Shown here: positions 4,920 through 59,982 of the stretch, piece by piece
Layout of the letters: each line of letters begins with the position of its first letter
How positions within the stretch are numbered: the first letter of the stretch is position 1
NCBI GenBank assembly: GCA_034780895.1
Contig: JAUZTB010000066.1
Span: 1,024,127-1,088,126, forward strand
Length of the DNA: 64,000 nt
Reading direction: 5' to 3'
Source of the DNA: Rhynchobatus australiae
Lineage: Eukaryota
Translations under genes and position numbers: made by a program
The notes under the pieces: model-generated
What the model saw: only the letters and a program-made list of their open reading frames with translations
What the model was told of the DNA's origin: nothing
Databases searched by the model: none

Positions 4920-5320
4920 AGACTTAGCCTATGCTCTGTAAAGGTAAAATGAGAGCTAATCTTGTTGAAACCAAAAAGATTTTCTGGGGCTGGACAGGAT
5001 AGCTGCAGGGTTGATGCTTCCTTGTGCTGAAGGTCTAGAACCAAGGGTCTCAAAGTAAGGGGTGGGCCATTCTGGACAGAGATGAGAAGAAATTTCCTCA
5101 CCCAGGTAATGAATCTTTAGAACTCTTTACCCAAGAGAGTGGCAGTGGCTCAGTCACCGAGTATACTGTATTCAATAGATTGTTGAATATTAAGAAATCA
5201 AGAGATATGGGGTTAGCACTGGAAAGTGGTTCTGAAATAAAAATATCAGCCATGATCTTATTAAATAGCAGAGCAGGCACTTTGGGCTGAATGGCTTCAC
5301 CTTACTTCTGTTTCTTACAT
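4920..5320 (+). mobile_element. CR1-like LINE 3' end
   Basis: 'gagatgagaagaaatttcctcacccag...' (EMRRNF motif) and tail 'cagccatgatcttattaaatagcagagcaggc...gggctgaatggc'. Confidence 0.7.
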
Positions 5321-6030
5321 TATATTCTTAACAGAATCTCCTTCCTGGTGCTGGTGTTGCAGAACCACTCTGAGGCATGATGCCTCTTGGCCCTTGGTTG
5401 AGCTTCTTGCCCTGTTGTTTGCATGTTCCCTGACCTGTTACACTCCCAGAGTTGGATTAAATTCTTTTAAAATGCCTTAATCAGTTTAAAATTTGCTTAA
5501 ATCTGCCTGCTGTAATCTGAACCGAGTGAATTGTTACTCAATGTGCAGCACCAGGCTTTGATTCACTCACCATTGACATCCCCACTGGCTGCAATAGGAG
5601 GCTGCCCAGCGATATTCCTCTTCCAGCTCTGTGACTTTCTTGCCCAGAGAACAAGAACTTGATATAAAAGATTTAAAAGATCTCTGCCTTGGTTTCAGGA
5701 CTCTGCACGGTCTCACCCCCAGCTCTGTCACTTCACCCTCCACAACACTGTCAATCTCAGCCCGCTTGGTCTCTTGAGCTGGCTGAACCTAACTCTTCTC
5801 CCATTGACTGCCATGCCTTCTGTTTTTGAGGCTAAGTTCTGCATTTCTTGATTCCCTCCCTCCACCTCCTCTAAACCCATCAGTTGGCCCAAGCTTTTGG
5901 TGGCCTGCCCTAACATCTTCTGTGGTTCAATGTCAGATTTCTGGCAGGTCTGCTGGAATGTACCGCTATGTTAAAGATGACATCTAATACAAGTTGCTGC
6001 TTTTCAACTCCATTGTTCCCTGCAGCAACC

Positions 6031-6332
6031 ACTCCTGGAGACACAAGAGACTGCAGATGCTGAAATCTGCAGCAAAAAACAAACTGCTGGAGGAACTCAG
6101 TGGGTCAAGGCAGCATCTGTTGAGGCAAAGGGATAGTCAATGTTTTGTGTTGAGACCCTGCATCAGGACTGAGAGTAAAGAGGGGAGGTAACCGGTCACT
6201 TCTTTATACTGGCTATCTTCCCTCCACAGTCTCAGCTCTGATACAGGGTCTCCACCTGAAACACTGACCACACCTTTACCTCCACAGATGCTGCCTGACC
6301 CACTGAGCTCCCCCAGCAGTCTGATCTTTGCA
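6031..6332. mobile_element. Penelope-derived non-autonomous element made of two inverted terminal-repeat copies
   Basis: The left arm 'ctgctggaggaactcagtgggtcaaggcagcatctg...gagaccctgcatcagga' is the reverse complement of the right arm 'tctgatacagggtctc...cagatgctgcctgacccactgagctcccccagcag'. Confidence 0.7.
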
Positions 6333-7950
6333 ACCACTCCTGGAATTATCTTGTACCTCAGCACAGCTCTCAAATATCTTAATGTGCCTTGGTAATGATC
6401 ACAGCATCCACAACCTTTAAAGAGAAGAGCCCAGGTTTGAATGCCTTTTATGTGAATCAGTGATTCCTGATTTTATTCCCGATTAGCCTGGCCACAATTT
6501 TAGGATTGTGCCTCTTGGCCCAGGTTCTCCTATCAGAGGAAATTGTTTCCCTATTCTGCCTGTGAATGTGTATATTGTTTAAAGAATACTGTCAGATGAA
6601 AGTGGGCTCAGAATAACTCAACGTCCAGAGTGATTTTCCTTTGAAGAATGAAATAAGGACAATTGTTTTTCAAAGTCTCTCTGAAGCTGTTTTTCACAAA
6701 ACCCGTCCATACCTGATACAGGCTGGGACATAGCTACATAACAGGATTAAGCAATTCATCAAACCCCTTGCACTGCCACCTCCCAAATCTTGATGAACAG
6801 AAATTCATAAAGTTACAAAAAAACACACAAAGTTTTTTTAAGAAAAGGTAATTTATCTTGTGTCTGGAGGGCAGCATTTCTGGATCACATTGCTCTAGAC
6901 TTGATCATGCAGGCTCTGAGGGCATCAGGGGAACAAAACTGGAGGATTGAGCCAGTACCAACAAGGAAACTTTCTGCAACTACTCACACAAAAAGGCAGC
7001 TGTCTTGATGTGAATAAGAGCTTCAGATTTCATGAGATATCGAACAGCCTTCCTGCTCCTTTCCATGTAACCAAAAATTGCCAATATTTATCATTAGAGA
7101 CAAGATGTGAAGCCCAAAACCCTTAGTGCTTAGACTAACCCACCCGCGAAGGAACACAGAGAGTGAATAGGAGAGCATCAAACTCTTTGTGTTTCTGCCT
7201 CACACCCAACTGTGTGGTCTTGCATGATTACAGTGACTGGGTATGACAGGCTTTAGAAGTTTTAACCGACAATGCAGTAGAAGAGACTTAGAGACAGGCA
7301 ATTATTGTTCACCCCGNNNNNNNNNNNNNNNNNNNNNNNNNNNNNNNNNNNNNNNNNNNNNNNNNNNNNNNNNNNNNNNNNNNNNNNNNNNNNNNNNNNN
7401 NNNNNNNNNNNNNNNNCACCCCGCTCATGGTAGACTGATTTGCTTGGCCATTTTGACTGAGTAAGAAGTTGTGCAGAAGTCAGAGCAGTGGGAGTTTACA
7501 GGACGTTGGAGGACTGGTTTGGTCTTTATGATAATCCAGAAGCCTGTTCACAAAAGAGCAAACTTAGTGAATTCAGGTTTGAAAGCACTGTGGAATAGGA
7601 ACTCCTGAACTCTGGATTGAGTACTACATAACAACCTAAATTGTCAGTCTGTGGACAGAAACATGTAGAAACCAGACAACAGACCTGTTGATCTATTGTT
7701 GATGATGTTGGTTGAAGTGGGAATATTGGTCAGGTACTGTTTCTCTTTGAGGAGCACCAATGGCATCTTTAAAACCCAGCTGAACAAGCAGAAGATGCAG
7801 CTGGTTTGATGACCATGCAGCATCGGTATGTGATGAACTGAAGCTTCGGCTTCCCCTAATTGCTCAACTCCTTGATGACAAACTGATGAGGAACACTAGA
7901 CCGTAAAGGAGGAGGAAGGAGAGAGGGTGGAGGAGGGTTGTGTCAGTTAC

Positions 7951-8162
7951 CTGCTGTCCTGTTGTGTCTTCACTCCTGAATGCAATCGACTCCAGCTCAT
8001 TACCTCTGCTGGTTAGAGCCCTCAGACATGAGTCACGGGATTCAAACTTTTGTTCCAGGAAGTCAATGGCTTTCTTGGCTCTCTCCTGCACCAATTTGGC
8101 ATGGTTTGCACCGTGGTAGTCTGTGTCCTGGCCTTTTGCCAGACCATCCAACTCATTAATCA
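7951..8162 (-). CDS. SMG6: SMG6 coding exon (212 nt, phase 1-0), PIN domain
   Basis: tttcag|TGATTAAT to CAGCAG|gtaact. Translation (V)INELDGLAKGQDTDYHGANHAKLVQERAKKAIDFLEQKFESRDSCLRALTSRGNELESIAFRSEDTTGQQ. The split codon G+TG gives Val and joins the 28.5 kb exon. Confidence 0.96.
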
Positions 8163-9589
8163 CTGAAACATTAAACAGCACAGATAGTCTGTCAATTCTA
8201 CATCCAGTATTTGAAAAAGCAGGAAATTATCCAAAATTTCATTATATTAACACTTCCACTATGAGATTGCACAGGCACAGTGAAATCTTCCTAAAATATA
8301 TATATAAGCACCCAACACAAGTGAGTGCAGAAATGCAGTGTCCAGTGAAGTGATGGCTGTGCTTCATCACAGGACTACAGCAAGGTGCTGCCTAGGTACC
8401 AAAGCTCTTGCTCATCCTGTCTGCTTAGCCCATCGACTGAATTAATCATTGAAATGCCAAACCCACTGAGGATCAAAAAACCAACCTCCAGTGAATCCAT
8501 GTACGAAGGAGCAAAACACAACAGGCTGACAGGTGAGACACCATCAGAACCGACAATGGTCCCACCAGACAACAGCCCATTCACCTTCTTTCAGATGCTG
8601 AACTGACTGCTACTTCTCCTGATTTTTCTGCAAGTTTCTGAATCATTTTACTGTATCTCCTGGAATTAGTTAACGACACGAATGGATCATCAGGACACAG
8701 GCATTATATCTGGCATTAACAGCAAGTCAAGGATGACTGGGAGTTTGCCCACCCAGCCTGCAGTCAATCCCCACACCCCATCACACGTCTCGTTGTTTAT
8801 ATCATTCCCACATGGTGGTGGTGAAATCTGGAGTGAGACTGATGTCAAAGGAGGATAATGGGAATTCTTAGACAGCATTTGGCACCACATCAGGTGACAC
8901 CAATGAGGGATAGTGGGAGCATTGTCTCTTCCGTGGCTGTTCTTGGGAGTAATTGTGACCCAAAGTCATCATGCTCAACAGTCTGGGTGATGACTGATCA
9001 TTTCATGCAGGAATCCCTCTAAAACACCTCAACCAGAGACCCCAGGCATAGATACCCTGAACAGAGAAAACATCAACTCTCCGTCTACAGCCATAACTCC
9101 CCCCGATACCAGAAAAACTACAGATACACATCGCTGCGTGTCAATAAAACCTGTGCTCTAGACAAGGACTGATGCATGGTGCATCACCTCTACTACTTGT
9201 GCTAGGTCCTCCAACTGTGCTGTTACCGGAATTCTAGTGCAGTCTGCAGAAACAAAACCGGAACTTGTCAAAAGAGGAGCTTCTTGGCCTGCAAAGGTTT
9301 GCTTACAGGAATTCCCAGCCTTTCTCATCACACCGTTATTTCCACAATATTCCAGGAAAATTGCAACCAGTCAGGCATTTGTACTCATGCCTATCATCCT
9401 TGTCAGAAATCCAATGTATTCCTTCTGCCCCCCCGCCCCCAACACACACACAGACAAAACTGGTCCCCAAAAATATAATTATATTAAAAGACTGCAATTA
9501 GTCGGGCAGAAGCAGTTGGTGATGCTGTTACTGGCACTGATTTCTGTAGCACCCCACTTGTTACAGCTTGACAAGCTAAAATAACTCAT

Positions 9590-10242: not shown

Positions 10243-10467
10243 GATAGATAGATAGATAGATTTCTTTATTAGTCACATGTACATCAAAACACACTGTGAA
10301 ATACAACTTTTGCGTAGTGTTCTGGGGACAGCCCACAAGTGTCGCCACACTTCCGGTGCCAACATAGCATCCCCACAGCTTCCTACCCATACGTCTTTGG
10401 AATGTGGGAGGAAACCGGAGCACCTGGAGGAAACCCACACAGACATGGGGAGAACGTACAAACTCCT
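10243..10467 (-). mobile_element. V-domain SINE (HE1-like), left copy of an inverted pair, with (GATA)n tail
   Basis: Reverse complement of the V-SINE core GTTCTCCCC..TGTCTG.GTGGGTTTCCTCC.GGTGCTCCGGTTTCCTCCCACA. The 5' end runs into an N gap. Confidence 0.75.
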
Positions 10468-10567
10468 NNNNNNNNNNNNNNNNNNNNNNNNNNNNNNNNN
10501 NNNNNNNNNNNNNNNNNNNNNNNNNNNNNNNNNNNNNNNNNNNNNNNNNNNNNNNNNNNNNNNNNNN

Positions 10568-10842
10568 GGTTAGCATAATGCTATTACAGCACCACCGCCC
10601 CAGGTTCAATTCCTGCTGCCATCTGTAAGGAGTTTGTATGTTCTCCCTGTGTCTGCGTGGGTTTCCTCTGGGTGCTCCAGCTTCCTCCCACATTCCAAAG
10701 ACATACAGCTTAGGAGCTGTGGGCATGCTGTGTTGGCACCGGAAGAGTGGCGACACTTGCAGGCTGCGCCCAGCACATTCTCAGAAACGCAAAAAGACTC
10801 ATTTCACTGTGTGTTTCAATGTACATGTGACTAATAAATTAT
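10568..10842 (+). mobile_element. tRNA-derived V-domain SINE, right copy of the inverted pair
   Basis: Pol III B-box-like GGTTCAATTCC at ~10603, V-domain core, and 3' end 'gtacatgtgactaataaa'. Confidence 0.78.
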
Positions 10843-13430: not shown

Positions 13431-16129
13431 TTCCAATAATCCTCACTGAATAACATATGGTATAGTGCTCAGGATGGCAAACAAGGTGGCTGAAGCCAAG
13501 CTCAGTACACTCCTCGAGGGACCAATTTAACTCTCCAGATTCTGTGATATCATATAATTCGAACATTAATCACTGATGTACCATGAGGGAAAATTAAAAA
13601 ATCTCTCCCATCAATTTGATTTGGGTTTGTTCTATAAAGGTTTAAGTGAGGCAGATAGGGAGACAGGATCCTGCTACAGTGCCCTGATTGAATCCATTTA
13701 ACTGCCTGTAGTTATAGTTTTCTTGTTGCTAATTTGAAACAGGTGAACAATTTGTTAGAAGTATGGTCTAAAGAGTTAGGGCAAGGGCAGTACTTTACAA
13801 AAATGGCACATTGTTTGCAGGGAATTAGACTGACCTTTGTCAATGTCAGATTAGAGCCAGATCAAACTCCAACATGAGCAGGTATTCTACCACACTTTGA
13901 AGTATTCATTATTGGTCAAAATCCAGCAGCAGCATCCAGTGGGCACCTCATGTTCAGTGAGATTCTCCAAGTCAGTTTCATATCTGACCAAGGTTCAGCC
14001 AAGTATTTTCCAAAAAAAAAGGGAATCAGATTCCATCTCCAGGGGTATCCCTGAATGTAGAACGAGGTGTTTGAAATATGTAGCACTCTTGGATTTTAGT
14101 TCAAAGGAAGAACAATTCAGCTGTTAAGGAAATGTCTCCAAATCTTCTCTTTAAGGAAGAGTAGCTAACATGATAACTGATAGAGAGAGAAACTTGGAAT
14201 GGCAGTTTTCTGCAAAGACTGGTAAAGGTATTGGGAGGGGTTCCTTGNNNNNNNNNNNNNNNNNNNNNNNNNNNNNNNNNNNNNNNNNNNNNNNNNNNNN
14301 NNNNNNNNNNNNNNNNNNNNNNNNNNNNNNNNNNNNNNNNNNNNNNNTTGGGAGGGGTTCATTGAGGGAAGTGTGGAGGTTGAAGCACTCACTCCTTCCA
14401 ATCAGGATTTCCAAACAAACTCCAACCTGATATAGAAAATAAGAATACTAATTTCTTCTTGGTTACAGAGATTAATGTTTCCCAGTTCCACGGCTTGCAC
14501 ATGCCACAGTCCTTTTTGTAAATGAATCACAGGCAGATAGCTTGCAAGAGCAGTAAGTGATAAGGGAGAACATTAACCGTTATAGCAAACGTCTTACTAC
14601 AAATGTACAGCCTACTCCTAACTAGGATCTTACAGATGAATGATAGGTCATTAGTTAAAACTGAATCCAGAGGGACGGAGGTAAAAGGGTAGTTATGCAA
14701 ATTGGAGCAAGTTAGAACATGGTGTTCACAGTTTACATGAATGGTTCAGAGTTGCAAGCCTGATTCTGCAACGTAGAAGGGCTGGGCCAAGTGGCAGCTG
14801 ATGAAGCCAACACTTAAGAAGAACGTAGCACATGTGAAAAGACTTAAGCTGAATTTCAGGAAATTGAACTTTAACACCATTGATGATGAGCTGATGTACT
14901 TCGATAGGAAATACAGGAAAATGCATCCACCTTAGAACATGGTACAGTGAATAAATCAACAGAATCATTATTGCAGGCTAGCAGAGGGATTGAAATATTC
15001 ACAAGGTACTGGGATATCTCGAGTATAGAATTCAAATGGAATGAAGTTTGATAGATAATTAATATTTCACCTAGTCAGGTCGCAGTGCAAGTTCTGGTCT
15101 TCCCACAATAAGGACAGAGATACTTTGGAGAGCAAACAGGATGTTAGCAGAACAGTGTGATTAAAGGTATCAGGAAGGGCCAAGCACCTGGGGCCTTTTT
15201 CCATTTGAAGAGATGACTGACAGGCAACCTGACAGAGATCTTTAGGTTGGCAGGGCAGATGTGGAGGACGCAGGACGTGAACACAAATTCAATAGGGAAC
15301 TAAGGAGACAAGGAACCTGCTACCACAGGCTGCGGTTTAGTTTAGAGGCTTTCAAAAGAACAGGTCCACAAGGGAAAGATGGGAACAGAAAGATGTGGTG
15401 AAAGGTGGAAATGAGGCAGATGGACTGGGGGCAGCTCATGGAGCGTAAACACCAGCACAGAGGAGATGAACTGTTCTTGTGTTTTGTGTGTGTGCAAGGT
15501 AATTCTATGAAATAAAATTAGAGAGCCTTCTGTATTTCCTATCAGGCATACTGTTATCCTCTGGAGCAGCCAATTGTTTCATTTTATAATAATATCTTAT
15601 CTTACTTTCAACTAATTCAGGAAATGCCTCCATCTTAAATCCTCTTCTGTAAACAAGAATGGAACCAGATATTGAACATCCCTGCTGATTCCCAAGAATT
15701 CTCCAACAGCTCATGTGACAGAGGTGCCAGTACTGTATGTGGAACCGCACTGTTGGGACAGGCACCACCTGAACTGGGCTGGCACTGGTGTCCACATGGA
15801 AATGATAAACACAGTGGGCACAAGGACTTTACACGAGTGAGAAGGCATTAATAATTCTTTCACAAATGAAAGGGAAGAGAGCAGAAATAAAAAAAAACAG
15901 GTATCATGGAAATCAAGAAATGCAAATTAAATCATAGAGAGACATGAGAAGTGAGATAAGACGTTTACAGCAGTACAGGCTGGTGTGTGGGTCCAAATAA
16001 TTGTCCCTAACACAAATGCAGGATATGCAAGGGACAAGTTGACTGAACTGCTGCTGCAAATTCAATTTATGGCATGTCATGGTGGTTATTACTGAAACAC
16101 AGGGACAGACAGTCAGAGCTAGAAACTAA

Positions 16130-16655
16130 ATAAAAACAGGAAATGCTGTTGATGCTTAGCAGATCAGGCAGTATCTGTGGAGAGAGAAACAGAGCTGACG
16201 TTCCAGGTCAATGACCTTTCATCACAACAGGGAATAAAAACAAGAGTGTTTCAAGCTGTAGAGAAGGAGGGTATGGAGACAACAAAGGGACTGTTTGCAA
16301 TGGGAGGAGGCTTGATGTCCAGGTGACACAAATGCACCTGATCGGTCTAAGGAGTGTCAACAGAGGGAGAGAACGAGGACAGAGCGGGATAAAATACAAG
16401 CTGGAACTGTGAGGTGCAGAACAGAGCAGATGGTATGCCCTGCATCATTAAAGTGGTCTCCTTTACTCTGGAGAAGCCAAAGATGGATTGTGTGACCACT
16501 TTGCAGAACATCTTTGTTCACCCCACAAGGGTGACCTGAGCTTCCAGTTGCCTCTCACTTAACTTTCCATCCCACTCTGTCTTTGGCTTTCTATATTGTT
16601 TGAACAAGGTCCAATGTTTGCTTGAGGAACAGCCCCCTCATCTTCTACCTAGTGT
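16130..16655 (+). mobile_element. Penelope-like retroelement relic: inverted terminal repeat (16130-16230) plus GIY-YIG endonuclease pseudogene (16455-16652)
   Basis: The plus frame from 16455 reads GLLYSGEAKDGLCDHFAEHLCSPHKGD, then after frameshifts ELPVASH and LEEQP/LIFYL. This fits the PLE GIY-YIG consensus 'LYIGETKRxLxDRFAEHL...LPVAxHFN...EQHLIFRL'. Confidence 0.7.
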
Positions 16656-18514: not shown

Positions 18515-19350
18515 CAGAGAGCACTACAGCACAGGAACAGACCCTCTGACCCATCATATCTGTTCCAACCATGGTGCCAATCTAACTAATCCTATCTGCC
18601 TGCACATCATCCGTATCCCTCTATTCTCTACCTGTCCATGTATCTGTCTAAACATTGCTACTGCATCTGCTTCCATCACCTCCCCTGGCAGTGCATTCCA
18701 GGCATCTACTACTCTCTATACAACACAAAACTTTCCCTGCACATTTCATTTAAACTTCCCCCCTCTCACCTTAAATCTATGCCCTCTAGTATTTGACATT
18801 TGCACCCTGGGAAAAATACTATCCAGCCTCTTATGCACTCGTTGCCCCTCAACCTCTGATGCTCCAGAGAAAACGATCCAAGTTTGTCCAACCTCTCCTT
18901 ATAGCTAATACACTCCAACCCAAGCAATGTCCTGCCGAACCTCTTCTGCAACCTCTCCAAACCCTCCACATAGTTCCTATAGTGTGGCGACTGAAAATGC
19001 ATCATCTTACACTTGTCCAGATTAAACTCCATCTGCCATTTCTCTGCCCACATTTCCAACTGATCTATATTCTGCTGAATCCTTTGACAACCTTCCTTGC
19101 TATCCACAACTCCACCAATTTTTGTGTCGTCTGCAAACTTGCTAATCAGATCACCTACATTTTCATCCAAATATTTTAGAAACAACAGAGATCCTAGCAC
19201 TGCTCCTTGCAGAAAACCACTGGTAACAGACCTCTAGTCAGACAACCAACCTTCCACCACTACCCTCTGTTTTATATGATCAAACTGATTTTGTATCCAA
19301 CTTACCAACTCACTGTGCATCTCATGTGACTTGGTCTTCTGGTCCAGCTT
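18515..19350 (-). mobile_element. CR1-like LINE RT and 3' end with internal deletions
   Basis: ORF 18766-19200 contains 'ISKFADDTKIGGVVDS...WAEKWQMEFN...LERLQKRF'. Confidence 0.85.
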
Positions 19351-24649: not shown

Positions 24650-27385
24650 AATGCTGACTCACAAAATCAGGAGATCGAATGATCTCTGGACAGAGAAAAC
24701 TGACAAATGAAATAAGTTAATGTTGGCAGTAGTTTCTGGGCCCCTTAACGCTGGCCATTGGACAAAGTATTGATCAAGAAATAAAAGAAAGTTATATCAA
24801 ACATTATGAATATTAGTGGCAACTTTAATCTTCACACAGTTTGGATAAATTAAATTGCCAAAGGTAACCTTGAAGATGAAGTCATGGATGCATTCAAGAC
24901 TGTTTCCTGNNNNNNNNNNGAACAAAATCTTGAGGACCTGACCCAGGTACCAACTATTTCAGATTAGTTCATGTATAATGAAAGAAGTTTAATTAGTAAT
25001 CTTGGTGATCTAGATGAAGGGATCTTCATATGGTAGAATTTCACAAGATGAGAGTGATGAACTTGAGTCTGAAACGAAGGTACTAAACCAAAGGAAAGGC
25101 ACTTATACAGATTTGAGTTCACTGAAGTGATTTGGGAAATTAGGTTATAAGGGCAGTGTAGATAAGCAGATATTTAAATAAATATTTCATAATTGTCAAC
25201 AGAGATTACCACTGAGAAACAAAGACTCAATGGGAAAGGAAGTCATCTGTGGCTATCTTAAGTAATCAAGAATGGTATTAGATGGAAATTAAAGGCTTAA
25301 AGAGTAGCACAAGCCTAACGACTGAGAGGACAAAGGATGGCTAAACATTCTACAAAACAGGGAGGAAACAGAGTAAACTGATGAGGAATGTTACGACAGA
25401 TTGCAAGAGTTTCTACATTTAGAAAGGGGATACAGCAAACGTAACTGCTGGTCTCTTAGAAGTTGAAGCAGGGGAATTAATTATGGGAAATAAGGAAATT
25501 GCGAGACATTACACAAATATTTTGCATCTGTTTTCTTGGTAGATGACAAGTATACCAAAAATAAGCAGAGGCAATGGGGAAAATAGGGGAGAGGAATAGT
25601 CCCCATTACAGAAAAAGTATGAGGTAAATTTACAGCACTAAAGACTGACAAATCGCCTGAACTTGACAGCCTTAAATCTTGGGTTCTGAAGAAAGTGGCC
25701 ACAGAGATAGTTGGTGAATTTGTTATGATCTTCCAAAACTCCTTGATTGTGGTAAGGTTCCAGTAGATTGGAAAATCACAAGTGTAACACCACAATTCCA
25801 AATAGAGTGAGGAAAAGCAGGCAACTATTGGCCAGTTCGTCTAATATTTGTTATCAGCAAAATGGTGGAGGCCAATATTACAGCAGCAATAGGATAATCA
25901 GAAAAACATAATAGAATTAGGCAGAATCAACAGGAATTTATAGAGGGAAATCAGGCTCCCCAAATTCTTTAGAGTTCTTTTAAGGATGTAACTTGCAAGG
26001 TAGTTGAGGGAACCAGTAGGTATGGCACATTTTGATTTCCAAGAGGCATTTGATAAAGAGCCACATACAAGGTTACTGCATAAGGTAAGTGTTGAAGGTG
26101 ATAGATTAGCAGAGGTGGAGGGCAGGTTAACTGGAAGTAAACAGAATCGGGATAAATGGGTTATTTTCAGTTTGGCAAACTGTACCTAGTGGAGTGTTAC
26201 AGGGAATAGTGCTGGGTCTTAGCTATTTACCATTTATACTAATGACTCAGATGATGAGATCACCTTCCCTACTTGATTCCAGCATCTGCAGCCTTGTGTC
26301 TTCACTTATCACCTTCCAGTCTCTAACTCCTCCCTCCCTCCCTCTCCCTCACCTGGCCCCATCTGCGCATCATCCCCCTCCTCACCTGGTTCCACCTATC
26401 ACCTGCCAGTCCCTGTCTCACCCCTCACTCTTACCTCAGTCTACTGCCTATCTCCCCTCCATACTCTGTCCTGATGCAGGGTCTTGACCTGAAATGTCAA
26501 CTATCCCTCCGCCTCCACAGATGCTGCCTGACCTGCTGAGTTCTGGCACAGGTTTATTTTTTGCTCCAGATTACAGCATCTGCAATCTCCCTTGTGTCAT
26601 GTGTATTACATCCAGATTCGCTAATTATACAAAGATATGGGAAAGTAAATTGTGAAGGAGTGCAGAGAGACTCCAAATAGAAATAAACAAGGAAGTAAGT
26701 GGGTAAAATGACGAGATGATACATTATGAAGGGAAATGTGAGAGTTTCTGATGGAGAGAATAGAAAAGCAGATTATTTAAGTGGCATGAAACCAATGGAT
26801 GCTGGTGTTCCAGAAAGATCTGGGTGTCCAGGTACAACAAGTGAATTATCATGTTGCTACAACAAGTAATTAGGAATGTGTTGGCCTTTATTGCAAGGGG
26901 GTGAAGAGCAGGAAAGTGTTGCCACAACTGTAAAAGGCATTGAGACCACTACATACTTTCAATCCCCTTCTTTAAGGACAGATATACCTGCATCAGAGGC
27001 AGTGCAGAGGTGATTCACTGGGATGAAGGTGTTGTGCTCTTAGAAAACATAACAGACCTAAATCTCTGAAGTTTAGTCACATGAGAGGCTGGGCAGGGTG
27101 GCTTTTGTGAGGATGGTTGGGGAATATAAGACTAGGAAGCTGTGCCTTAAGGTAAAGGGCTGCCATTTAAAATGGGAAGGAAGAGACATTTGTTTTCCCA
27201 GAATGCTATGAAGTTTTGGAATTCTCTTTCCTGGAGAGTCATGGAGACTGTCATTAAGTATTGTTCAAGGATGGGATGGAAAGACTAGGAACAGGGACCT
27301 GAGTTATAATACAAACCAAAATGTGGGTCTGAGGCCAAGGTCAGATCAGTCACTATCTTATTGAGTGGAAGAGCAGCTTGAGAAG
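24650..27385 (+). mobile_element. Long decayed CR1-like LINE (EN through RT to 3' end) interrupted by a Penelope-derived insert
   Basis: Degenerate motifs in collinear order: 'GNFNL' (EN), 'LKTDKSPELD', 'HFDFQEAFDKEPHTRLLHK', 'GVLQGIVLG', 'SRFANYTK'. Confidence 0.75.
26270..26600 (+). mobile_element. Penelope-derived insert with terminal repeat and hammerhead-like motif
   Basis: 'cacctggttccacctatcacctgccag...gtcctgatgcagggtcttgacctgaaatgtcaact...cagatgctgcctgacctgctgagtt...ccagattacagcatctgca'. Confidence 0.7.
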
Positions 27386-28490: not shown

Positions 28491-28644
28491 CAATAAGTGG
28501 GACCACGATGATGTACAGCCTAGTATCCAGCAGCTTGACCAGACCTGGGAGGTGATCAATAAATCCATTGGTGTCTGGCACAAGAAAGACAGGTGTTATC
28601 TCAATCTCGATCTGTCTCTTGAAAGTTTGATCTTCTAATAGTGC
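28491..28644 (-). CDS. SMG6: SMG6 coding exon (154 nt, phase 0-1), start of the PIN nuclease domain
   Basis: ctaacag|GCACTATTA to CTTATTG|gtaaac. Translated by hand as ALLEDQTFKRQIEIEITPVFLVPDTNGFIDHLPGLVKLLDTRLYIIVVPLI(V), which contains the PIN first-aspartate motif VPDTN. Not in the ORF track. Confidence 0.95.
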
Positions 28645-29999
28645 CTGTTAGAGAAAGAAAGAAAAATAAGGATCACCTCAGAATAATCTTTCATCTAAAC
28701 ACCAACTATGCTNNNNNNNNNNNNNNNNNNNNNNNNNNNNNNNNNNNNNNNNNNNNNNNNNNNNNNNNNNNNNNNNNNNNNNNNNNNNNNNNNNNNNNNN
28801 NNNNNNNNNNNNATGCTGCAGGATATGTGAGGGGAAGTGTGGCTTGTTTGTGAGGACTAATTAGGGATGTGTAAATGGTCAATGCCAGGGATTAATGTAT
28901 GTATGAAGGATCAGTGCCAGGGATTGTTGACGGCATCAGTTTGGGTAATTATCAGAGGTGTGGACAAGTTTAGTGTCAGGCTGCAGGAGTCTGGCTCCAT
29001 CAACGGGATGAGCGGTTCAGTTCGGTATCTCAAAACAACCAATCAAGCTTTGGCATCCAGCCTCCTGCTCTGTGCCCAGACAAGAATTGCCTCAATCCTG
29101 GATCCAGACCAGGAATACTCAAGTACTCTCTCAATCCTGGATCCTGCATAGCAACACGTGTCCTCTCTCAATCCTGGACCCAGAGCTGGGATCTGGGTGC
29201 CAAAGCAATTTAAAGGCAAAGCAGGTACAGCTTCCTTGTTGGCTGCCCCTCTACAGTCACAGACTGGAGGTGCTCAGCCTAATGACACATCTTCTCCCAG
29301 AAGTGACACTTTCCTTCAAACAATCCCTGCAAAGGAGGCCTGCCAACTCTGTTGTGCATTTGCCCCGACCACTGCTTGCCCCACACACGCATGTTTTACT
29401 CCATTACCCTTGCGTGTCATTTTCAACCAGTGAAGCAGTACTTTTTTCCATTTAGATTGTACCAGAGGTTTTGGTAATAATCTGTGAACAAAGAGCAAAT
29501 GTCCAGAGGCAGAACAGCTGCAGGGATAATCAGTCATCCCTCAGTGCCAGCAACTGCCCAGTCAGCTGAATATTTGGAAAACGTCTGACTGCTGAAGATT
29601 TACCTCATGTAACAAAACAGATATGCTGCACAGCAAATGATATAATCATCACGAGGCCCCACATACACTCCATCACTACTTCCAACTCATCCTCTGGCAT
29701 GGACTCTCTGACTTGGACTATTCTGCATATGTTCATTATTTTGTGACAAGCTGCCTAAATCGCCTCTCACTGATTTGTGTTCACATGTTCCAATGCAATG
29801 GTTCAACCGGAGATGCCACAAATTCAAGCTTCTATTCCCCTTTATAACTATTTATTTGTTGAAGTCCAGGTGTGCACTTGCAAAGACCTTGCTTCTACCT
29901 ATCATAATCTGTGATCACAAATTTCCACCAATGGTGACAATTAACTTCCCAACAATACTGCTGTATCAAAAGTAACAATGTAGATGAATGTCCCATGCA

Positions 30000-30305: not shown

Positions 30306-30649
30306 TTACTGCCTCTGTGAAGCATGACCTTCTGGTTCTGCAAATACATTGGGAACTTACGTAACAAATAAATATTAATCACCTTTTATGATAATTATCT
30401 TTGAATTAGCGTGTTGCTGATGGAAGATGAATGTAACAGAAGAGAGGTGACTTTAACAAGGNNNNNNNNNNNNNNNNNNNNNNNNNNNNNNNNNNNNNNN
30501 NNNNNNNNNNNNNNNNNNNNNNNNNNNNNNNNNNNNNNNNNNNNNNNNNNNNNNNNNNNNNNNNNNNNNNNNNNNNNNNNNNNNNNNNNNNNNNNNNNNN
30601 NNNNNNNNNNNNNNNNNNNNNNNNNNNNNNNNNNNNNNNNNNNNNNNNN

Positions 30650-31030
30650 CCAGGGAGAATCGGTACCTTGGGGACCATACCCCAGGGAGAGTCGGTACCA
30701 CAGGGATCGCACTCCAGGGAGAGTTGGTACCCGGGGATTGTACCCCGGGGACAGTGGGTAACTCAGGGACTGCATCCTGGGAAGAGTCGGTACCTTGGGG
30801 ACTGTACCTGGGGAGAAGTTGGTACCTCGGGGACAGTACCCTGGGGAGAGTTGGTACCTTGGGACTGTACCCCGGGGAGAGTTGGTACCTCAGGGACTGT
30901 ACCCCAGGGAGAGTTGGTACCTCAGGGACTGTACCCCGTGGAGAGTCGGTTCCTTGGGGACCGTACCCCGAGGAGAGTTGGTACCCTAGGGACAGTCGGT
31001 ACCTCGGGGACTGTACCCTGGGGAGAGTCA
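30650..31030. repeat. GC-rich minisatellite, 32-33 bp unit (GGGAGAGTTGGTACCTCAGGGACTGTACCCCA), about 11-12 copies, running into an N gap
   Basis: Direct tandem periodicity is visible in the sequence and gives repetitive spurious ORFs in several frames. Confidence 0.92.
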
Positions 31031-31914
31031 GTATCTTCAGGAAATGGGAATTGCAGGAAAGCAGCAAACTATATTATCATAAAAATGTAACCTTTGGCTG
31101 GCATCTCAGTCAGGGCATTGACACTGCCCAAACATCCTAATAAGAAGCCATCTGTACCATCAAAATAACATCTTCAAGAACAATCAGTGTCTTTAGCTTA
31201 GAGTCATGAATGTAATCTTGTGACTGTGTGCAACCATTAACGTTAGATTAGCATTATTTCTATAATTTAATTTTTGTCATTCATTTTGTGGCAAAATGAC
31301 TGGGTGCTTCCAGTCACTATATTTCTTGGCACTCAGTATCATGGAAGTATTAGGCCATGCTTCAACAGAAAAACCTGACTGTTTAAATGCCAGCAGTCCT
31401 TTAAAATGGCACTTTGCTCTCCATGTGGAAAGCACTGGCTTTGCAGGCTGCTAGCTCACCTTTATTTCATCTTTTATAATTTGAGCTACTGGCAGTCCTG
31501 ATAAGCACCGTGACTCTGCTCCTGTCTGAGCCATGTCCACATTCAACATGTTTGTCTAATCTTTGTGCAACTTGCTGCTTGCTCCCAGGGTAGGTCTTCC
31601 AGAACTGTGTACTCTTTAGAACACCCAATGTAAGAGATTAAATAGCCTAGACTCATTGACAAAGTTGTCACATGCCCAGGATTAGATCATCAGCTCAACC
31701 AGCCAGCTTCACCGTTGCAAGGTTGAGTCAGGTGCAGCTCTGGCTCAGTGTGGTTTCTGAGGAGTTCTATACTGAGAGAGGAAACCTTTCAAATAAGATG
31801 ACGAACTGAAGCTGTGTTCTTAGGCGGACATAAAACAATAAAGAGGAGCAGCAAAGGTCTCTCAGTGACCGAGCCAACATTCACCCCTTAAACAACATCA
31901 CCATAAGCTACGGT

Positions 31915-32175
31915 GACACAAGTGACTACAAATGCTGGAATCTGGAGCAACAAACAAAAGTGATAGGTGTCTCCACAAATTACCTCCCAGCCTCTGCTAT
32001 TTCCACTCTTCCCTCTGCCTATCACCCCTCATCACCTCGATCCACCTATCACCTGCCAGCTCTTGCTCCACCCCTTCCCCTCACCTCTTCATACTGGCTC
32101 TCTCCCCTCTATCTTTAGGTCCAGATGAAGGGTCTTGACCTGAAATGTCAACTGTCCATTTGCCTCCACAGATGT
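31915..32175 (+). mobile_element. Penelope-derived element: short inverted terminus plus terminal repeat with hammerhead-like motif
   Basis: Same family as 26270-26600: 'gtccagatgaagggtcttgacctgaaatgtcaactgtccatttgcctccacagatg'. Confidence 0.7.
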
Positions 32176-33055
32176 GACCATAATCTGTGAATTGGTGATC
32201 TATTTCAGTGNNNNNNNNNNNNNNNNNNNNNNNNNNNNNNNNNNNNNNNNNNNNNNNNNNNNNNNNNNNNNNNNNNNNNNNNNNNNNNNNNNNNNNNNNN
32301 NNNNNNNNNNNNNNNNNNNNNNNNNNNNNNNNNNNNNNNNNNNNNNNNNNNNNNNNNNNNNNNNNNNNNNNNNNNNNNNNNNNNNNNNNNNNNNNNNNNN
32401 NNNNNNNNNNNNNNNNNNNNNNNNNNNNNNNNNNNNNNNNNNNNNNNNNNNNNNNNNNNNNNNNNNNNNNNNNNNNNNNNNNNNNNNNNNNNNNNNNNNN
32501 NNNNNNNNNNNNNNNNNNNNNNNNNNNNNNNNNNNNNNNNNNNNNNNNNNNNNNNNNNNNNNNNNNNNNNNNNNNNNNNNNNNNNNNNNNNNNNNNNNNN
32601 NNNNNNNNNNNNNNNNNNNNNNNNNNNNNNNNNNNNNNNNNNNNNNNNNNNNNNNNNNNNNNNNNNNNNNNNNNNNNNNNNNNNNNNNNNNNNNNNNNNN
32701 NNNNNNNNNNNNNNNNNNNNNNNNNNNNNNNNNNNNNNNNNNNNNNNNNNNNNNNNNNNNNNNNNNNNNNNNNNNNNNNNNNNNNNNNNNNNNNNNNNNN
32801 NNNNNNNNNNNNNNNNNNNNNNNNNNNNNNNNNNNNNNNNNNNNNNNNNNNNNNNNNNNNNNNNNNNNNNNNNNNNNNNNNNNNNNNNNNNNNNNNNNNN
32901 NNNNNNNNNNNNNNNNNNNNNNNNNNNNNNNNNNNNNNNNNNNNNNNNNNNNNNNNNNNNNNNNNNNNNNNNNNNNNNNNNNNNNNNNNNNNNNNNNNNN
33001 NNNNNNNNNNNNNNNNNNNNNNNNNNNNNNNNNNNNNNNNNNNNNNNNNNNNNNN

Positions 33056-34499: not shown

Positions 34500-34675
34500 G
34501 GGGTACCTTTAGGGACTGTACCCCAGGGAGAGTCTGTACCTCAGGGGACCGTACCCTGGGGAGAGCGGGTGCCTTCAGGGAATGTATCCCGGGGAGAGCG
34601 GGTGCCTTCAGGGAATGTATCCCGGGGAGAGCGGGTGCCTTCAGGGAATGTATCCCGGGGAGACTATATCCCAGA
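34500..34675. repeat. Minisatellite, 33 bp unit (GAGAGCGGGTGCCTTCAGGGAATGTATCCCGGG), related to the 30650-31030 array
   Basis: Units start at 34561, 34594 and 34627. The first two units (34500-34560) match the 30.7 kb unit type. Confidence 0.9.
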
Positions 34676-36194: not shown

Positions 36195-37043
36195 GTGAGG
36201 TGCCAAGAGACAATACCAGTCCAAAATCGAGTCCCAGACCAGCCGTCATTTGTGGCAGGGCTTTCATGCTATAACAGGCTACCAAACAAAGTCAGGCAGC
36301 ATCACTGACAGCCGCGCATTCCTTCCTGATGAGCTTAATGCATTCTCTGCACGTTTTGGACAGGAGGAGAGTGGTTTGTCACCACCCACCCTGAGAGCCT
36401 CCAATGCAACTGAACCCATGGTCACCATTGAGGACATAAGATCAGTCTTCTGGGGAGTGAATCCACAGAAAGCATCTGGCCGAATGGTGTCCCTGGCCAT
36501 GTCCTTAGACCCCGTGCAGATCAGCTGGTGGGGGTATTTGCAGACATTTTTAACCTCTCCCTCCTTCAATCTGAGGTACCCACCTGCTTTAAGAAGACTA
36601 CGGTCATCATGGTACCTAAGAAAAACAAGGTAACGTGCCTTAATGACTACTGACCGGTGGCTCTGACATCCACCAACATGAAGTGCTTCGAGAGGCTGGT
36701 CAGGAGCACACATCAACTCCAGCCTCCCAGACAACCTCGACCCACTGCAATTTACCTACCACCAAAACAGGTTTACAGCGGACGCCATCTCCCTGGCCCT
36801 ACACTTAGCTCTGGAGCATATGGACAGTAAAGACACATATGTTAAGATTATAGTTTATTGACTACAGCTCTGCCTTCAATACTATAATTCCAAGCCAAAC
36901 TCATCACCAAAAACTCCGAGACCTGGGACTCAACACCTCCCTCTGCAACTGGATCCTTGACTTTCTAACCAACAGACTGCAATCAGTGAGGATAGGCAGC
37001 AATACCTCCGGCATGATTATTCTCAACACTGGTGCCCCACAAG
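36195..37043 (+). mobile_element. Rex1/Babar-like LINE RT region with frameshifts, running into a gap
   Basis: 'LWQGFHAIT...LPDELNAF', 'LVGVFADIFNLSL...PTCFKK', '[21 protein letters not shown]', 'DPLQF', '[12 protein letters not shown]', 'LNTGAPQ'. Confidence 0.85.
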
Positions 37044-37554
37044 NNNNNNNNNNNNNNNNNNNNNNNNNNNNNNNNNNNNNNNNNNNNNNNNNNNNNNNNN
37101 NNNNNNNNNNNNNNNNNNNNNNNNNNNNNNNNNNNNNNNNNNNCTGTTTATAATGAATGATTCAAGTAAGCTTCCTGGTTCTGTTCCTCCACCACTCCTC
37201 CATTCCTCTTTCACTCTTTCTCCCTGTCCCACCAATGCCACGCAGACTCAAACACACACGGTTCTTGTGTTGCTGCTGTTGAACAGGATTCTGAATTCAT
37301 TAATATGGTGGTGTCTAATGACACTCTTGCTAATTTGATGCACTGTTAAAAACCATGTAAATTGTTATTTGGATTGATTTGTTATGTATTTTCAAGTTGA
37401 TTTAGCAGCTGTAAAAGGTCAGTGTTTAATTTTCAAACATATCTAAAATATTTTTAGAAAAATGGAGGTAGCCATGCAGTTCTGTTCTGTGATGTTTACT
37501 CTCGCAATTTCACTCAGAGTAGAACATTATGGATCCAATTACCATCCCTGAGAT

Positions 37555-38249: not shown

Positions 38250-39335
38250 TAAAGAGAAAATTCTGGAAATTCTCAGCAGGACAGGCAGCATCTATGGAGT
38301 GAGAAACAGTTGATATTTCAGATTACAGAGACATAAGGGAGACTGTAGTTGCTGGAAATCTGGAGCAACACACACAAAATGCTGGAGGAACTCAGCAGGT
38401 CAGGCAGTATTTATTGAGGGAAATGAACAGTCAACGTTTCGGGCCGAGACCCTTCATCTGGACTCAACATCAAAAGTCCTCAAAAGGACTTCATCAGCAT
38501 ATTTCAGATTGATGACTTCCATCAGAACAGTTCTAATTATGGCAGTTTTGATCAAAGGGCATTGGTCTACAACATGAACTTTGCTGCTCATGCCATTGAT
38601 GTTGCTTGATCTCACAGAGCCATAAATTCATACAGCATAGAAACAAGCCATTCAGTCCAACCTGTCCATGCTGACCATCCAGTACCTGTCTTTGCTAATT
38701 CCTTTCACCAGCACTTGGTCTGCATCCTTTTATACCTTGGTGACTCAAGGGCTCCTCTAGATACTACTTCAATGTTTAGAGAATCTCTATCTCCACCTCC
38801 CCCTCAGGCGGTGCTTTCCAGATTGCAACAACCCTCTGGGTAGAAACGTTCTTCCTCAGAAACCTGCTAAACCTCCTACCCTAAACCTATGCCCTTTTTC
38901 TCTTTAGACTCCTCTGCGATGGGGGAAAAATGTCCTTTTCTATCCAATCGATGCCCTTTATAATTTTGTTCCTCTGTCAGGTTCCCTCCCCAACCCCCAC
39001 CCCTCGTCTCCTGTTCTCCAAGAAAGACAAAACCAACCAATCAAGTCTCCTCATAATAGAAATTCACCATTCATGGCAATATCTTGGTGAATCTCCTCTG
39101 CACCTCCTGTGCAATCACGTTTTTCTTGTAGTGTAGTGACCAGAACTGTACACAGTATTCCATCTGTGGCCTAACTAATATTTTATGTAGTTATACAATA
39201 ACCTCCCTGCTCTTATATTCCATGCCCTGGCTAATGAAGCAAGTATCCCATATGCCGCCTTCACCTGCTGAGTATTTTCAGCATTTTCTGTTCTTATTTT
39301 AGATTCTAGCTTCCTCAGTTTTTTTTTTGCTTTTC
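38250..39335. mobile_element. Nested cluster: two Penelope-derived terminal repeats plus an inserted CR1 3' fragment (minus, ~38617-39262)
   Basis: The outer arms 'agaaaattctggaaattctcagcagg' (38254) and 'cctgctgagtattttcagcattttct' (39264) are reverse complements. An inner copy lies at 38328-38465. Confidence 0.65.
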
Positions 39336-45902: not shown

Positions 45903-46080
45903 AAACTGCAGATGCTGGAAATCTGGAACAAAAACAGAAAATGCTGGAAATACTCATCAGGTCAGGCAGCATCTGAGGGAAGAGGAACAGAATCTCTTCT
46001 ACCTGAAACATTGAGTCTGTTTCTCTTCCCAGAGATGTGGCCTGACCTGCAGAATATTTCCAGCATTTTCAGTTTTTATT
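45903..46080. mobile_element. Penelope-derived hairpin element (inverted terminal repeats)
   Basis: 'aaaaacagaaaatgctggaaatactc..caggtcaggc.gcatctg' versus 'gagatgtggcctgacctgcagaatatttccagcattttcagttttt'. Confidence 0.72.
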
Positions 46081-55830: not shown

Positions 55831-57767
55831 TTGTCCCTCCACATACTGCCCAGACAAGTTTAATGGGCTGGGACTGGGGCAGTGGGCCTAATCCAGCCCA
55901 GTGAAATTCACCTGAGGGGGTCCCATTAGAAGATGGGATGAGAAGGTAAGGCATTTTGGAATGGATCCATAAGAGACAATTACCAAGAAAGGAACCAGGT
56001 AATGGTACTGTCGGTCAGGTCTGGTTGTACCAGACCTTGGTGGGAAACAGATGCACTGGTGTTCAGAGATAATTTTGCAGAATGGGCCCAGCAATGAGGG
56101 GCTTTAGTTCAGCAGGTGACTGGAAAAGTTACAGCGATTCTCTTTACAGGGGAGGAGGGTGGGAAGAGATCCAATAAAAATCACGAGGGGACTAGGTAAG
56201 GTGAATAAAACCAAAAAGTGCTTCCAGTGGTGGAAGGGAGTTATTGTGGAGTGATGCGTTCCTCATAATCTGAGCATCAGAGCTTACCAGTGTGAATCTA
56301 ACAAAGTACCAGCAACAACTTCAGGAACACTGTGATTTACTCTTCTTTATTTACTGCATTCAACAAAGTACACTGAAGCTGTAGAGAAGGGTACTGCCAG
56401 TCTGATATTACTGACACATTCAGAAGATGAAGCTTCAGTGGAAATAAGGGGAAAAGAAAGACTGCCTTGACATAACATCACTTGAGCTCCAGCTGTAAGG
56501 TGCTCTGGGACAGCCCGTCTCTGAGGTATTTCATTGTTGCTATGTAATACGAGTGTGTGACTGAATGAATGAGCCCAAGAGTGAGTGAGCCGAAGAAATG
56601 GACTGCCAGAGAGCACTGCATCCAGGAGCTGGAAAGCCTTGGCGCTGGAACCTGTCCTCTGTTGGGAAGTGCTGAGTCAGACTTCCCTTTGAGAATAACA
56701 TGAGGTAGAAATGGCAAACTCCTCTGTTTGGATCTTATCCTAGCCCTGCCAGCCTGTCATCTCCCTCTCAGCCCTGGACATCTTCTGTTGAATTACAAAC
56801 CTGCTCAGTTCCTTTCTGATACTTTGACAGACTTCTCATTCACTGTGCTGGCAACATCCTGTTATAAAAATTAATTCCAATGTGTGAAGTAGTTACACCT
56901 AGTTTGTGGTTTCTTTTATCAATAATCACACACCACTGTACTGTAGTCAAAGTAAAACAGTAATACTTGCAAATTGTCCTGTTGAGAAATGTTTAACTGG
57001 GACCTGAAAGAATGGACTCCTGTATGACCGAATCTGTGAGATTCCTTGCTACCCAGGTAACACAGAAGGTTAAGACAAAACACAAAGTGTTCCAAGCAAT
57101 ACTACCCAAAATCCTACAGCACTCTTTCCAAGACCTCCAAGTTTCGTAGCTTGGTGATTAAGATATGTCTAAAGTGAATTATGTTAAGGAAACATAGCAG
57201 AGAGCTTGCTTGTAAGTAATGGGAATGATGGTTCAGCACTCAAAGAGTTAATGGAGCTAAAGCAGGAGTCATTCCTGCCAAAAATAAGAAATCAGTTCTA
57301 GCTGGTGCACAGGTTAACTAAGTCAGTGATCGATTTTAATGATCTTAATATGAGCTGCCGGGTCCTAGGCAGAGAGCTAGTTGTAAAAATACATGAAACT
57401 AACTTTAACAAATGAGTCTTTGGGAGAAGCTGTCTGAAAACATGCTTTTTCTGAATGGATAAATCGAGAAGAAAACATCAGACCCTGTTGATATTAACAT
57501 TTTAAAACATTTATCTTACTTTTAAAAGGTTAAGCTGGGTTTGGAAAAATAACTTGAGTCTGTTCAGGAGGAAAGCCAAAGCCTCGAGGGCACACATGTG
57601 CATTTTCCCAAAAGGGTCTTTGGTTTGCCTATTTTATAACCAGCCCTGCATAGCACAAGAGTTTGAAGCATATGGCTAGACAGATGCTTCTGGCTCCAAT
57701 TCAAGGCTGACAGAAATGAAAGAAAAAAAAGATGGAAAGTTTTCCCCCAGTGAAGAGCCTTGGGTAC

Positions 57768-57917
57768 CTGGATCTTTTCCTGTCTGCGCTGCTGCTCGGC
57801 AAATTTTTTAGTCAGTGCTTGCTTTTTTGCCCTCAGCTCCTTTATATCATCTTCCCCTCCGCTGCCTTCAGGCTCAGTGTCCTGTCCCTCGTATTCTTCA
57901 ATGATGACATCTTCTTC
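57768..57917 (-). CDS. SMG6: SMG6 internal coding exon (150 nt, phase 0-0), acidic linker/coiled coil
   Basis: gcacag|GAAGAAGAT to ATCCAG|gtaccc. Translation EEDVIIEEYEGQDTEPEGSGGEDDIKELRAKKQALTKKFAEQQRRQEKIQ is in frame with both neighbouring exons. Confidence 0.95.
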
Positions 57918-59982
57918 CTGTGCACAAATGGTTGGCAACAGAACTGAAGTGAGGAACAGTGAAAAATGAGAGTGCTACTAACAAGATGCAGCAAGGCGCT
58001 GCCATCTTCAATATTCAGCCCCATACATTAAACAAAAGTTCAGGAACACAGACTTGAGCTATGTCATATTCATGCCTTGGTGATTAATAATGCCTTGATA
58101 AGGACAGATGCTGCCAAAAATCTAGATAAACATGGATTACCAAGCCGGTCTGGTAGCTCTAGTGGACTCCAAACCCAGAGTTCTGAAGTTAAATTCTAAC
58201 ACTGACGGATATTTGAAAACACCAAGCCTCCTGGAATACCTCCATAAGTCCCGCATCATGCTATTGGCAGAGTCCTGCCGCAGCACAGCTCACCTCTGGC
58301 CACAGAGGCAAAGCTGCACGATTGGGCAGCCAACCAAAGATACAAATGGCAGGCACTGCCCTGCTAGGGAAGGAGGTCACATCTGCTCCACTGTCACCCC
58401 ACCACTTATTGGCATCATAGGCTGGAAGTAGCGATTCCAAGTATCTCACCTGATTCCACATAACCCAGCTTGCCTGTATGAAAAGCCAGCACTCAGTCGT
58501 CACACCCTTCACTTCATAAGTGGAAAAAACAGTCTTGCTAATGCTTCACACTACTGCACAGCTGAAAACCATTCACTCCAGAGAATTCAGAGCACTGGTA
58601 GTGTCTGTGTGCTCTTTGCTGGCCAGGAAGGCAGGCCTCTGGCTCCCGCTCTGCACCACAGCATGCAAGTTTGAGAACAGCAACTCATGGAATATTAATT
58701 GCACTGCTAGGTGTCAATAGCTTGGCCAGTGCTGCAACTACAAGTGTTACTGACAGCTGGGGTGGGAGACGGTGGTGCAAAGATGACAGAAGACCCATGA
58801 GACTTCAATAATTTTGAGGTAATTTGGTTCAAAAGTTCACAGGATAAATAAACACACTTGCCACTCTAAGTGCCACAGCCTTAGGACTGCTTGTAATTCC
58901 TGGCATTCACTTGGACAGCTCCAACTCTTTAAAAGGAGTGGCCTGTGATGTCATCGGGGGTTTATGGGGTGAGGGAGGTGTATGAACAATGAGGCTTTCA
59001 GTAAAAAAGTTGGGGACCACTATGATCTCAATCAGGGATTCATTACCAGACAGAATTTAAATCATTTATCACTACTGATTTAGGTTTGGGACTTACTGCA
59101 TTATCAGCCCACTGTTGTACGGAAGACAGTTTGAACTCAAATCACTGAACAGCAGACTCACTGGTGTCTGCCCACAGCCATGTGTATATTCTGCTATAAC
59201 AGACAGTATAAAGCCTGGCTATGGAGGTACCAGCCGGCTCCGAGACTGAGTTTATTCTGCAAGTATCACATGAGTTGGTGCTGGATGGTGTCGACCAGGG
59301 AGAAGAGAGCTTCCAAGTCCCACTGAAGCACTGACAACTACACCAGCCACACCTGCCTGTGATCACTAGGCTGAGTATCTTGGAACACTGCTACTTCCTA
59401 GATGTTTTGGTTTGAGAGTAAAATGAGCTGGAAAAGAGGCAAGGATTTCATGGCATGGAACAGAATGCAGAGGCTTTACACTGAGTGAAGCAGGCTGGTG
59501 GGACAGAGCACTGAGTAGGCCTACAACTACTCACAGCCTCTGGAACCCATACTCAGCAAAAGGCAGCAGTTTTAAGGGAGAAAGAAAACTGGCAAGCTGA
59601 GGCAGCCAACAGTTTCTCATCCCTATGCAATCAGAGAAAATAGGTAGTTCAGGTAACTTTCAGATGAGTGTGTAGCACCCAATGGGATGTCAAGTGTGGT
59701 ACCCCAACGACATGGGTTAGGCCCTTTGAAGAGGGCCAGGCGCCACTGCTTTATGAGAACCACAAACTGAGAATAAACGACTTTTGCCTCCAGTGTCATC
59801 TCCAGATCGTTGAGACATTTTTTCCTTGCAGCACAGGGAGATCCATGCCTCTAGTGAGAGTGATGTTTGAGACACTGTGCCCCATGGATCTGTGAGCCAT
59901 TAGCCAAGCAACAAGCTGTAGCAGAATCCAGCTGGCACCACACCTTTGTGCTGACTACAAACTGTGGCATCTCAGCTATGTT

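Follow-up and report, generated by a model that had tools for sequence, protein, structure and literature searches.

An intron of SMG6 in Rhynchobatus australiae carries, sense to the pre-mRNA, a short sequence that reads as a minimal type I hammerhead ribozyme (HHR) with one substituted core position. The locus thus raises the questions of whether the motif is real, which element brought it there and whether it could still cut the transcript in which it lies. The architecture of an HHR within the terminal repeat (pLTR) of a Penelope-like element (PLE) is already published (Cervera and de la Pena 2014, PMC4209133). From an analysis of the window, i.e., the whole 64-kb stretch of DNA, together with searches of the genome assembly, we consider it very probable that the SMG6-intron copy is a solo, 5'-truncated pLTR fragment of a very abundant PLE, with the minimal HHR at its start, and a likely catalytically dead fossil.

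A minimal hammerhead motif within an SMG6 intron

The hammerhead motif at 38429-38464 is not a chance occurrence. A strict minimal-HHR descriptor, allowing one core mismatch, matched the window once, at this site, and had no matches in 20 first-order Markov windows. Read on the minus strand, helix I comprises 4 bp (5' strand at 38464-38461, 3' strand at 38432-38429) and is followed by a core of CAGAUGA (38460-38454), an extra A after A9 (38453) and a helix II of likewise 4 bp (38452-38449 with 38444-38441), which includes one U-G wobble and carries a 4-nt loop. GAAA lies at 38440-38437, C15.2-G16.2-U16.1 at 38436-38434 and U17 at 38433, the NUH triplet being GUU and the predicted cut falling between 38433 and 38432; many young copies of the family have C17 instead. 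Because of the U4A substitution, the copy lacks an intact core of CUGANGA, one nucleotide, helix II and GAAA. The initial annotation had read helix I, core, extra A, helix II and GAAA from the minus strand exactly as they stand. Its palindrome, AACGUU, is also present, but the working one is the 4-nt A15.1-C-G-U16.1, in which 15.2 and 16.2 form a C-G pair followed by U-U, whereas the outer A and U are core residues.

Rfam hammerhead scans returned no match at E<=10 for the SMG6-intron motif and likewise none for a canonical copy (L027); because the canonical copy is missed as well, this null is uninformative about motif or function. The folding z-score is 0.05 for the 46-nt stretch, and helix probabilities are <=0.01 for the copy folded in its own flanks. 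Folding was dropped as a sign of inactivity, since only 4 of 24 copies of the mainly canonical subfamily to which this copy belongs fold both helices at >0.3.

By tblastn with sawfish EST1A/SMG6, four SMG6 exons were located, all on the minus strand; one of them matches sawfish SMG6 at 100% identity across 59 residues, and the PIN exon matches PDB 2HWW (E 2e-32). The host intron, between 57735 and 28647, is ~29 kb long. Motif and exons share the minus strand, and the description of the motif as sense to the SMG6 pre-mRNA is thus upheld. The 14 family copies in the window are divided equally between the two orientations relative to SMG6 (7 sense, 7 antisense), and no second intact sense HHR was found within the 64 kb.

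The motif heads a 140-bp pLTR fragment, and the insertion as a whole (38325-38498) breaks an older copy of the family at that copy's GAAA (Table 1). The 34-bp junction sequence contains a second CUGAUGA, without GAAA, and in part resembles the adjacent target sequence. A single contig of a related organism, at depth 6, extends across the 5' junction; within 466 nt it shows 13 differing letters and 19 gap letters. The insertion therefore likely predates the split from that organism, with which it appears to be shared, and hence has persisted. Elsewhere in the window we noted arrays of a 32-33-nt minisatellite unit (30645-31042 and 34501-34665), two decayed LINE-type RT fragments (18766-19233 on the minus strand, RVT_1 E 3e-7, and 36199-37153, recognised by eye only) and a long inverted repeat (10265-10838) with 150-nt arms of 85% flanking an assembly gap.

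Table 1. Coordinates of the SMG6-intron motif, its surroundings and related core-variant subfamilies (window positions unless otherwise given).
Feature	Position	Strand	Basis
Minimal type I hammerhead motif	38429..38464	-	sequence; descriptor match with 1 core mismatch
U4A core substitution	38459..38459	-	sequence; A4/G4/C4/U4 counts in pattern searches
pLTR tail (5' UTR sequence of the element), stopping ~30 nt before the ORF start of longer copies	38325..38428	-	comparison with longer copies
34-bp extra sequence at 5' junction, with 8-bp hairpin	38465..38498	-	sequence, folding
Direct repeat of 12 bp 5' of the element, probable target-site duplication	38499..38510	.	only two occurrences in window
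Direct repeat of 12 bp 3' of the element, probable target-site duplication	38313..38324	.	only two occurrences in window
Older pLTR/HHR copy, 3' half, split by the insertion	38251..38324	-	aligns to natural copy 16120-16240
Older pLTR/HHR copy, 5' half, with decayed core and helix II	38499..38530	-	separate alignment to natural copy 16120-16240
Decayed pLTR copy in head-to-head arrangement with the older one	38543..38612	+	family-copy annotation
SMG6 coding exon upstream of host intron	57735..57920	-	tblastn limits, not exact splice sites
SMG6 coding exon downstream of host intron	28492..28647	-	tblastn limits, not exact splice sites
U4A lineage subfamily	genome-wide; L080-L109; window 32118-32176	+	linked flanking letters
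Subfamily with C at position 9 (or C bulged before A9)	L230-L254; window 6173-6077; 26464-26549	-; +	pattern and tail cluster

Linkage of the repeat to a Penelope-like element

Longer copies have the order pLTR(HHR)-ORF(RT, CxxC linker, GIY-YIG)-pLTR(HHR), with the pLTR being found on both sides of the ORF. On the 3' side, endonuclease-like coding sequence lies upstream, in the sense orientation, at four of the loci most similar to the SMG6-intron copy. Among 29 loci chosen solely by endonuclease DNA, the motif repeat follows 170-810 nt downstream, sense in 19 and antisense in 1; of the 10 loci other than these 19, 7 are interrupted by N gaps and 2 stop at a contig end. RT, endonuclease, pLTR and HHR are collinear in 4 of 20 long loci, most others breaking at gaps. 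On the 5' side, an HHR lies directly upstream in 13 of the 25 loci chosen by tail and ORF start, ~140 nt before an ORF start that is homologous to that of full-length relatives; locus L279 is a partial tandem. An ATG located 25 nt past the cut site was rejected as the ORF start, the homologous start lying ~140 nt after the cut site.

By RT, the nearest relatives come from Mobula (70%) and Chiloscyllium (64%), and these proteins carry RVT_1, PF26215 and often GIY-YIG (PF01541). A CX2-5CxxC linker between RT and endonuclease (EN) is present in L049 and in every one of the long homologs that contain a GIY-YIG-like motif (48/48). For the family itself, Pfam found RVT_1 below the cut-off in the RT pieces (E 8e-4 and 1e-3) and called no GIY-YIG in the C-terminal pieces, although it did call GIY-YIG in the related decayed copy L034. 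None of the 150 RT matches listed holds an intact ORF, and a single ORF with RT and C-terminal GIY-YIG is represented by broken but collinear pieces together with the full-length relatives. Judged from the sequence, the repeat is the pLTR of an EN+ PLE, assigned to the Neptune/Nematis type because of the CxxC linker between RT and EN, which according to Craig et al. 2021 (10.1101/2021.04.23.441226) marks Neptune/Nematis, not Penelope/Poseidon. Of the earlier designation as a ribozyme-bearing PLE derivative, the PLE origin and the ORF linkage stand, but the copy derives from a protein-coding PLE, as a pLTR truncated at its 5' end, and does not belong to a separate derivative family.

A second PLE family, without the CxxC linker, is present on small contigs (L032 1-1785 and 2944, L033 1-1785, and L031) and accounted for most of what a genome search with Pfam GIY-YIG returned. 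It has long open RT and GIY-YIG frames (688 and 735 aa), and its L032 carries an intact minimal HHR of its own, with the same layout and different helix letters. This family may be young, or it may not be native to the assembly.

Abundance, decay and helix pairing

A search of 100 evenly spaced 10-kb segments (826 kb after exclusion of N) with a family profile built from natural copies yielded 198 matches, versus 0 in the reversed control. Extrapolation gives ~4x10^5 copies in the genome, a rough estimate in which large scaffolds were sampled and inverted pairs are counted twice, and which agrees with the earlier description of the repeat as abundant. The initial annotation had also proposed counting the copies with an intact core: a degenerate intact-core pattern has 2,335 genome matches (reversed pattern, 0), a count that leaves out subfamilies with a longer loop and, like the other pattern counts, may be slightly inflated by assembly duplicates. 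One canonical 34-mer alone has 186 exact matches. The SMG6-intron copy is thus the best preserved, as had been claimed, insofar as it is the sole descriptor match among the family copies of the window, but not in comparison with the intact-core matches across the genome.

The 113 of 198 profile matches that cover both motif and tail constitute an unselected sample. Its copies are mostly decayed, with an intact core in 11 of 113 and core plus palindrome in 0 of 113. At every core column of the family alignment, the canonical letter is the commonest, in agreement with the hammerhead reading that a family consensus was proposed to check. Across the sample, 638 of 825 helix cells pair (77%), compared with 18-46% when partners are slid by 1-3, and a value as high arose in 1 of 2000 permutations. 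Furthermore, tail-defined clusters switch pair 2.1-1.1 (C-G versus U-A) and pair 10.1-11.1 (G-C versus A-U), with Fisher p values of 3e-4 and 8e-5 that ignore relatedness and are confounded by CpG decay; corrected mutual information places these two no higher than 740th and 148th among 3741 column pairs. The apparent covariation rests on few independent events and may be regarded as supportive, not strong.

Element ends, inversions and splice-like signals

For a survey of 5' ends, 92 of 142 tail matches were kept after score and gap filters. In this set, 30 of 92 copies start at -12..+5 relative to C3 and only 5 of 92 at +24..+29, with the reservations that local alignment blurs ends and that the reference panel is thin for old subfamilies; none of the 25 ORF-start loci begins at +28. 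Cleavage as the maker of the 5' ends is therefore unsupported, as the starts pile up at the 5' foot of the motif, not at the cut site.

Adjacent family copies in a random sample (L130-L229) are arranged head-to-head in 25 pairs and tail-to-tail in 2, an excess in line with known PLE inversions. Such head-to-head pairs are joined in or near the hammerhead, examples in the window being 6077-6322 and 45934-46070, and the junction of L094 shares helix I letters, as expected from fold-back priming. Tandem HHR pairs at L280, L281 and L110 were rejected as natural dimers: they span N gaps and appear to be duplicates introduced by the assembly.

In 51 of 82 copies, a polypyrimidine tract with YAG terminates at the 5' strand of helix I (alignment columns 6-8; ~1470-1502 in L027). 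This arrangement resembles a splice acceptor and would parallel the intron of D. virilis Penelope, which ends at helix I (PMC4209133). Another polypyrimidine-YAG is found ~20 nt past the cut site. In the SMG6-intron copy, tail substitutions at 38411-38416 on the minus strand remove this second YAG and create an AATAAA sense to SMG6, probably by chance.

Core variants and the origin of U4A

In the exact background of the SMG6-intron copy, A4 has 3 matches, G4 1 and C4 26, whereas U4 under a near-identical pattern has at least 186. In a tail tree, the copy falls among canonical ones, although the set was chosen by similarity to that copy, with copies containing N left out, and the tree is poorly resolved. 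By these comparisons, U4A looks private to the SMG6-intron copy.

The substitution could instead have been inherited, with the copy belonging to a U4A subfamily, and such a subfamily does exist: it has 283 exact matches, as against 882 with U, C or G at position 4 (G4 accounting for 1 of the first 100 listed), a linked loop letter in 93 of the first 100 and upstream and tail letters of its own; moreover, one copy similar to that in SMG6 (L008) has A4. Nonetheless, we consider inheritance unlikely. Loci chosen by U4A carry the linked diagnostic letters A/C in 24 of 30 cases and the G/T pair of the SMG6-intron copy in 0 of 30, and the scarcity of A4 within the copy's own background and its position in the tail tree, with the limits given above, likewise point to a substitution private to the SMG6-intron copy.

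A further subfamily, A9C, has 464 matches to a more degenerate pattern. In the unselected sample, position 4 is A in 17 of 110 copies and G in 3, and position 9 is C in 26 of 113, G in 5 and U in 7; in one tail-defined cluster, 22 of 26 copies have C9. Both variants also occur behind endonuclease-coding sequence, U4A at 2 of 30 loci and A9C at at least 2 of 25. We hold evenly balanced the proposal that U4A and A9C sources each gave rise to tens of thousands of copies in which helices I and II were retained along with GAAA and the palindrome, and that, thus, either cleavage would be dispensable for PLE retrotransposition in vivo, with the fold kept for another role, or these would be new active core variants. 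Variant-core elements could also have been mobilised or complemented in trans. In the open literature, searched mainly by titles and abstracts and with thin coverage of subscription journals, we found no paper on variant-core PLE subfamilies.

Discussion

The motif shares with the minimal HHRs of PMC4209133 the type I topology, a short helix I, an extra nucleotide between 9 and 10.1, the pair G10.1-C11.1, the palindromic 15.2-16.2 and the lack of loop 3, as well as presence in both pLTRs and dispersal mostly as solo copies. It differs from those described there in the U4A of the SMG6-intron copy and in whole subfamilies with U4A or A9C. The extrapolated copy number of ~4x10^5 compares with ~4,000-9,000 motifs in coelacanth and Xenopus (PMC4209133), although the counting methods differ. 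In a term search, shark, skate and chimaera were absent from supplement file 2 of that paper.

Unlike the Neptune/Nematis EN+ PLEs described by Craig et al. (10.1101/2021.04.23.441226), the present family has no intact ORF among the matches examined. PAc, a Poseidon element of the lizard Anolis carolinensis (Frangieh et al. 2024, PMC11167929), similarly has an HHR in its pLTR and 3' ends in the tail just past the pLTR, and inserts into its own pLTR at AT-rich DNA, as one nested site suggests for the family described here. However, PAc belongs to the Penelope/Poseidon clade without the CxxC linker, which is present here, and its ORF starts inside stem II rather than ~140 nt after the predicted cut. 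Animal non-LTR retrozymes, reported from one chondrichthyan (Li et al. 2026, 10.64898/2026.07.22.740005), likewise consist of repeats that carry a type I HHR and are related to PLE pLTRs, but form tandem arrays, whereas the SMG6-intron copy is solo.

By analogy with the published systems, two motifs of the parent element would pair via the ACGU palindrome, probably with the help of the element's own protein, and would be cut after position 17. Single minimal HHRs show no cleavage and dimers only low cleavage (PMC4209133), and the PAc hammerhead cuts only with the element's protein and is not needed for insertion in vitro (PMC11167929). In PAc, reverse transcription begins inside the tail (PMC11167929); for the SMG6-intron copy, it would have started in the pLTR tail and stopped at the 5' foot of the hammerhead, with U4A presumably being acquired after insertion. 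Since its U-turn is damaged, and neither an intact sense partner in the vicinity nor an intact ORF was seen, the copy would not be expected to cut the SMG6 pre-mRNA to any useful extent. The copy is likely inert, because it carries U4A, is solo and lacks an intact sense neighbour, and in view of the published mutagenesis and dimer results.

Against the view that the substitution is lethal, a separate subfamily has spread with U4A, which is therefore not proven lethal in this context. The copy might accordingly be thought weakly active in trans or when helped by protein, occasionally cutting the SMG6 pre-mRNA or being co-opted as an intronic regulator. Its sense orientation, the retention of both helices and the palindrome, the thousands of intact-core matches as possible partners, the lineage status of U4A elsewhere in the family and the contig bridging the 5' junction in a related organism would all fit such a role. 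We nevertheless regard it as very unlikely. Single mutants in the CUGA turn, U4 mutants among them, have generally low activity (Roberts et al., PMC9901934), and the tolerated viroid variant in the relevant parts of Perreault et al. (PMC3088659) is U4C, U4A not being named there. In addition, no other copy in the window passes the descriptor, the family shows no strand bias within the gene, the tail has decayed like that of a neutral copy and the lizard element yields no RNA-seq ends at the cut site (PMC11167929). Finally, that the hammerhead likeness is coincidental or the repeat an unrelated SINE, as the lack of an Rfam match and the folding z-score might suggest, has next to no probability, since the canonical copy is also missed by Rfam, the descriptor found nothing in any of the control windows, the repeat is linked to an RT/endonuclease ORF at both ends and the published minimal-HHR layout (PMC4209133) is matched.

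The SMG6-intron copy, most plausibly an inert fragment, matters little in itself, being one damaged fragment among hundreds of thousands and belonging to a published class of motifs. Real cleavage of the SMG6 pre-mRNA would, if true, be of more interest, but finds no support here. The family as a whole, in which a single element has canonical, U4A and A9C subfamilies, offers a convenient natural test set for the role of the HHR in EN+ PLEs, and it is in the variant-core subfamilies, rather than in the copy within SMG6, that most of the interest lies.
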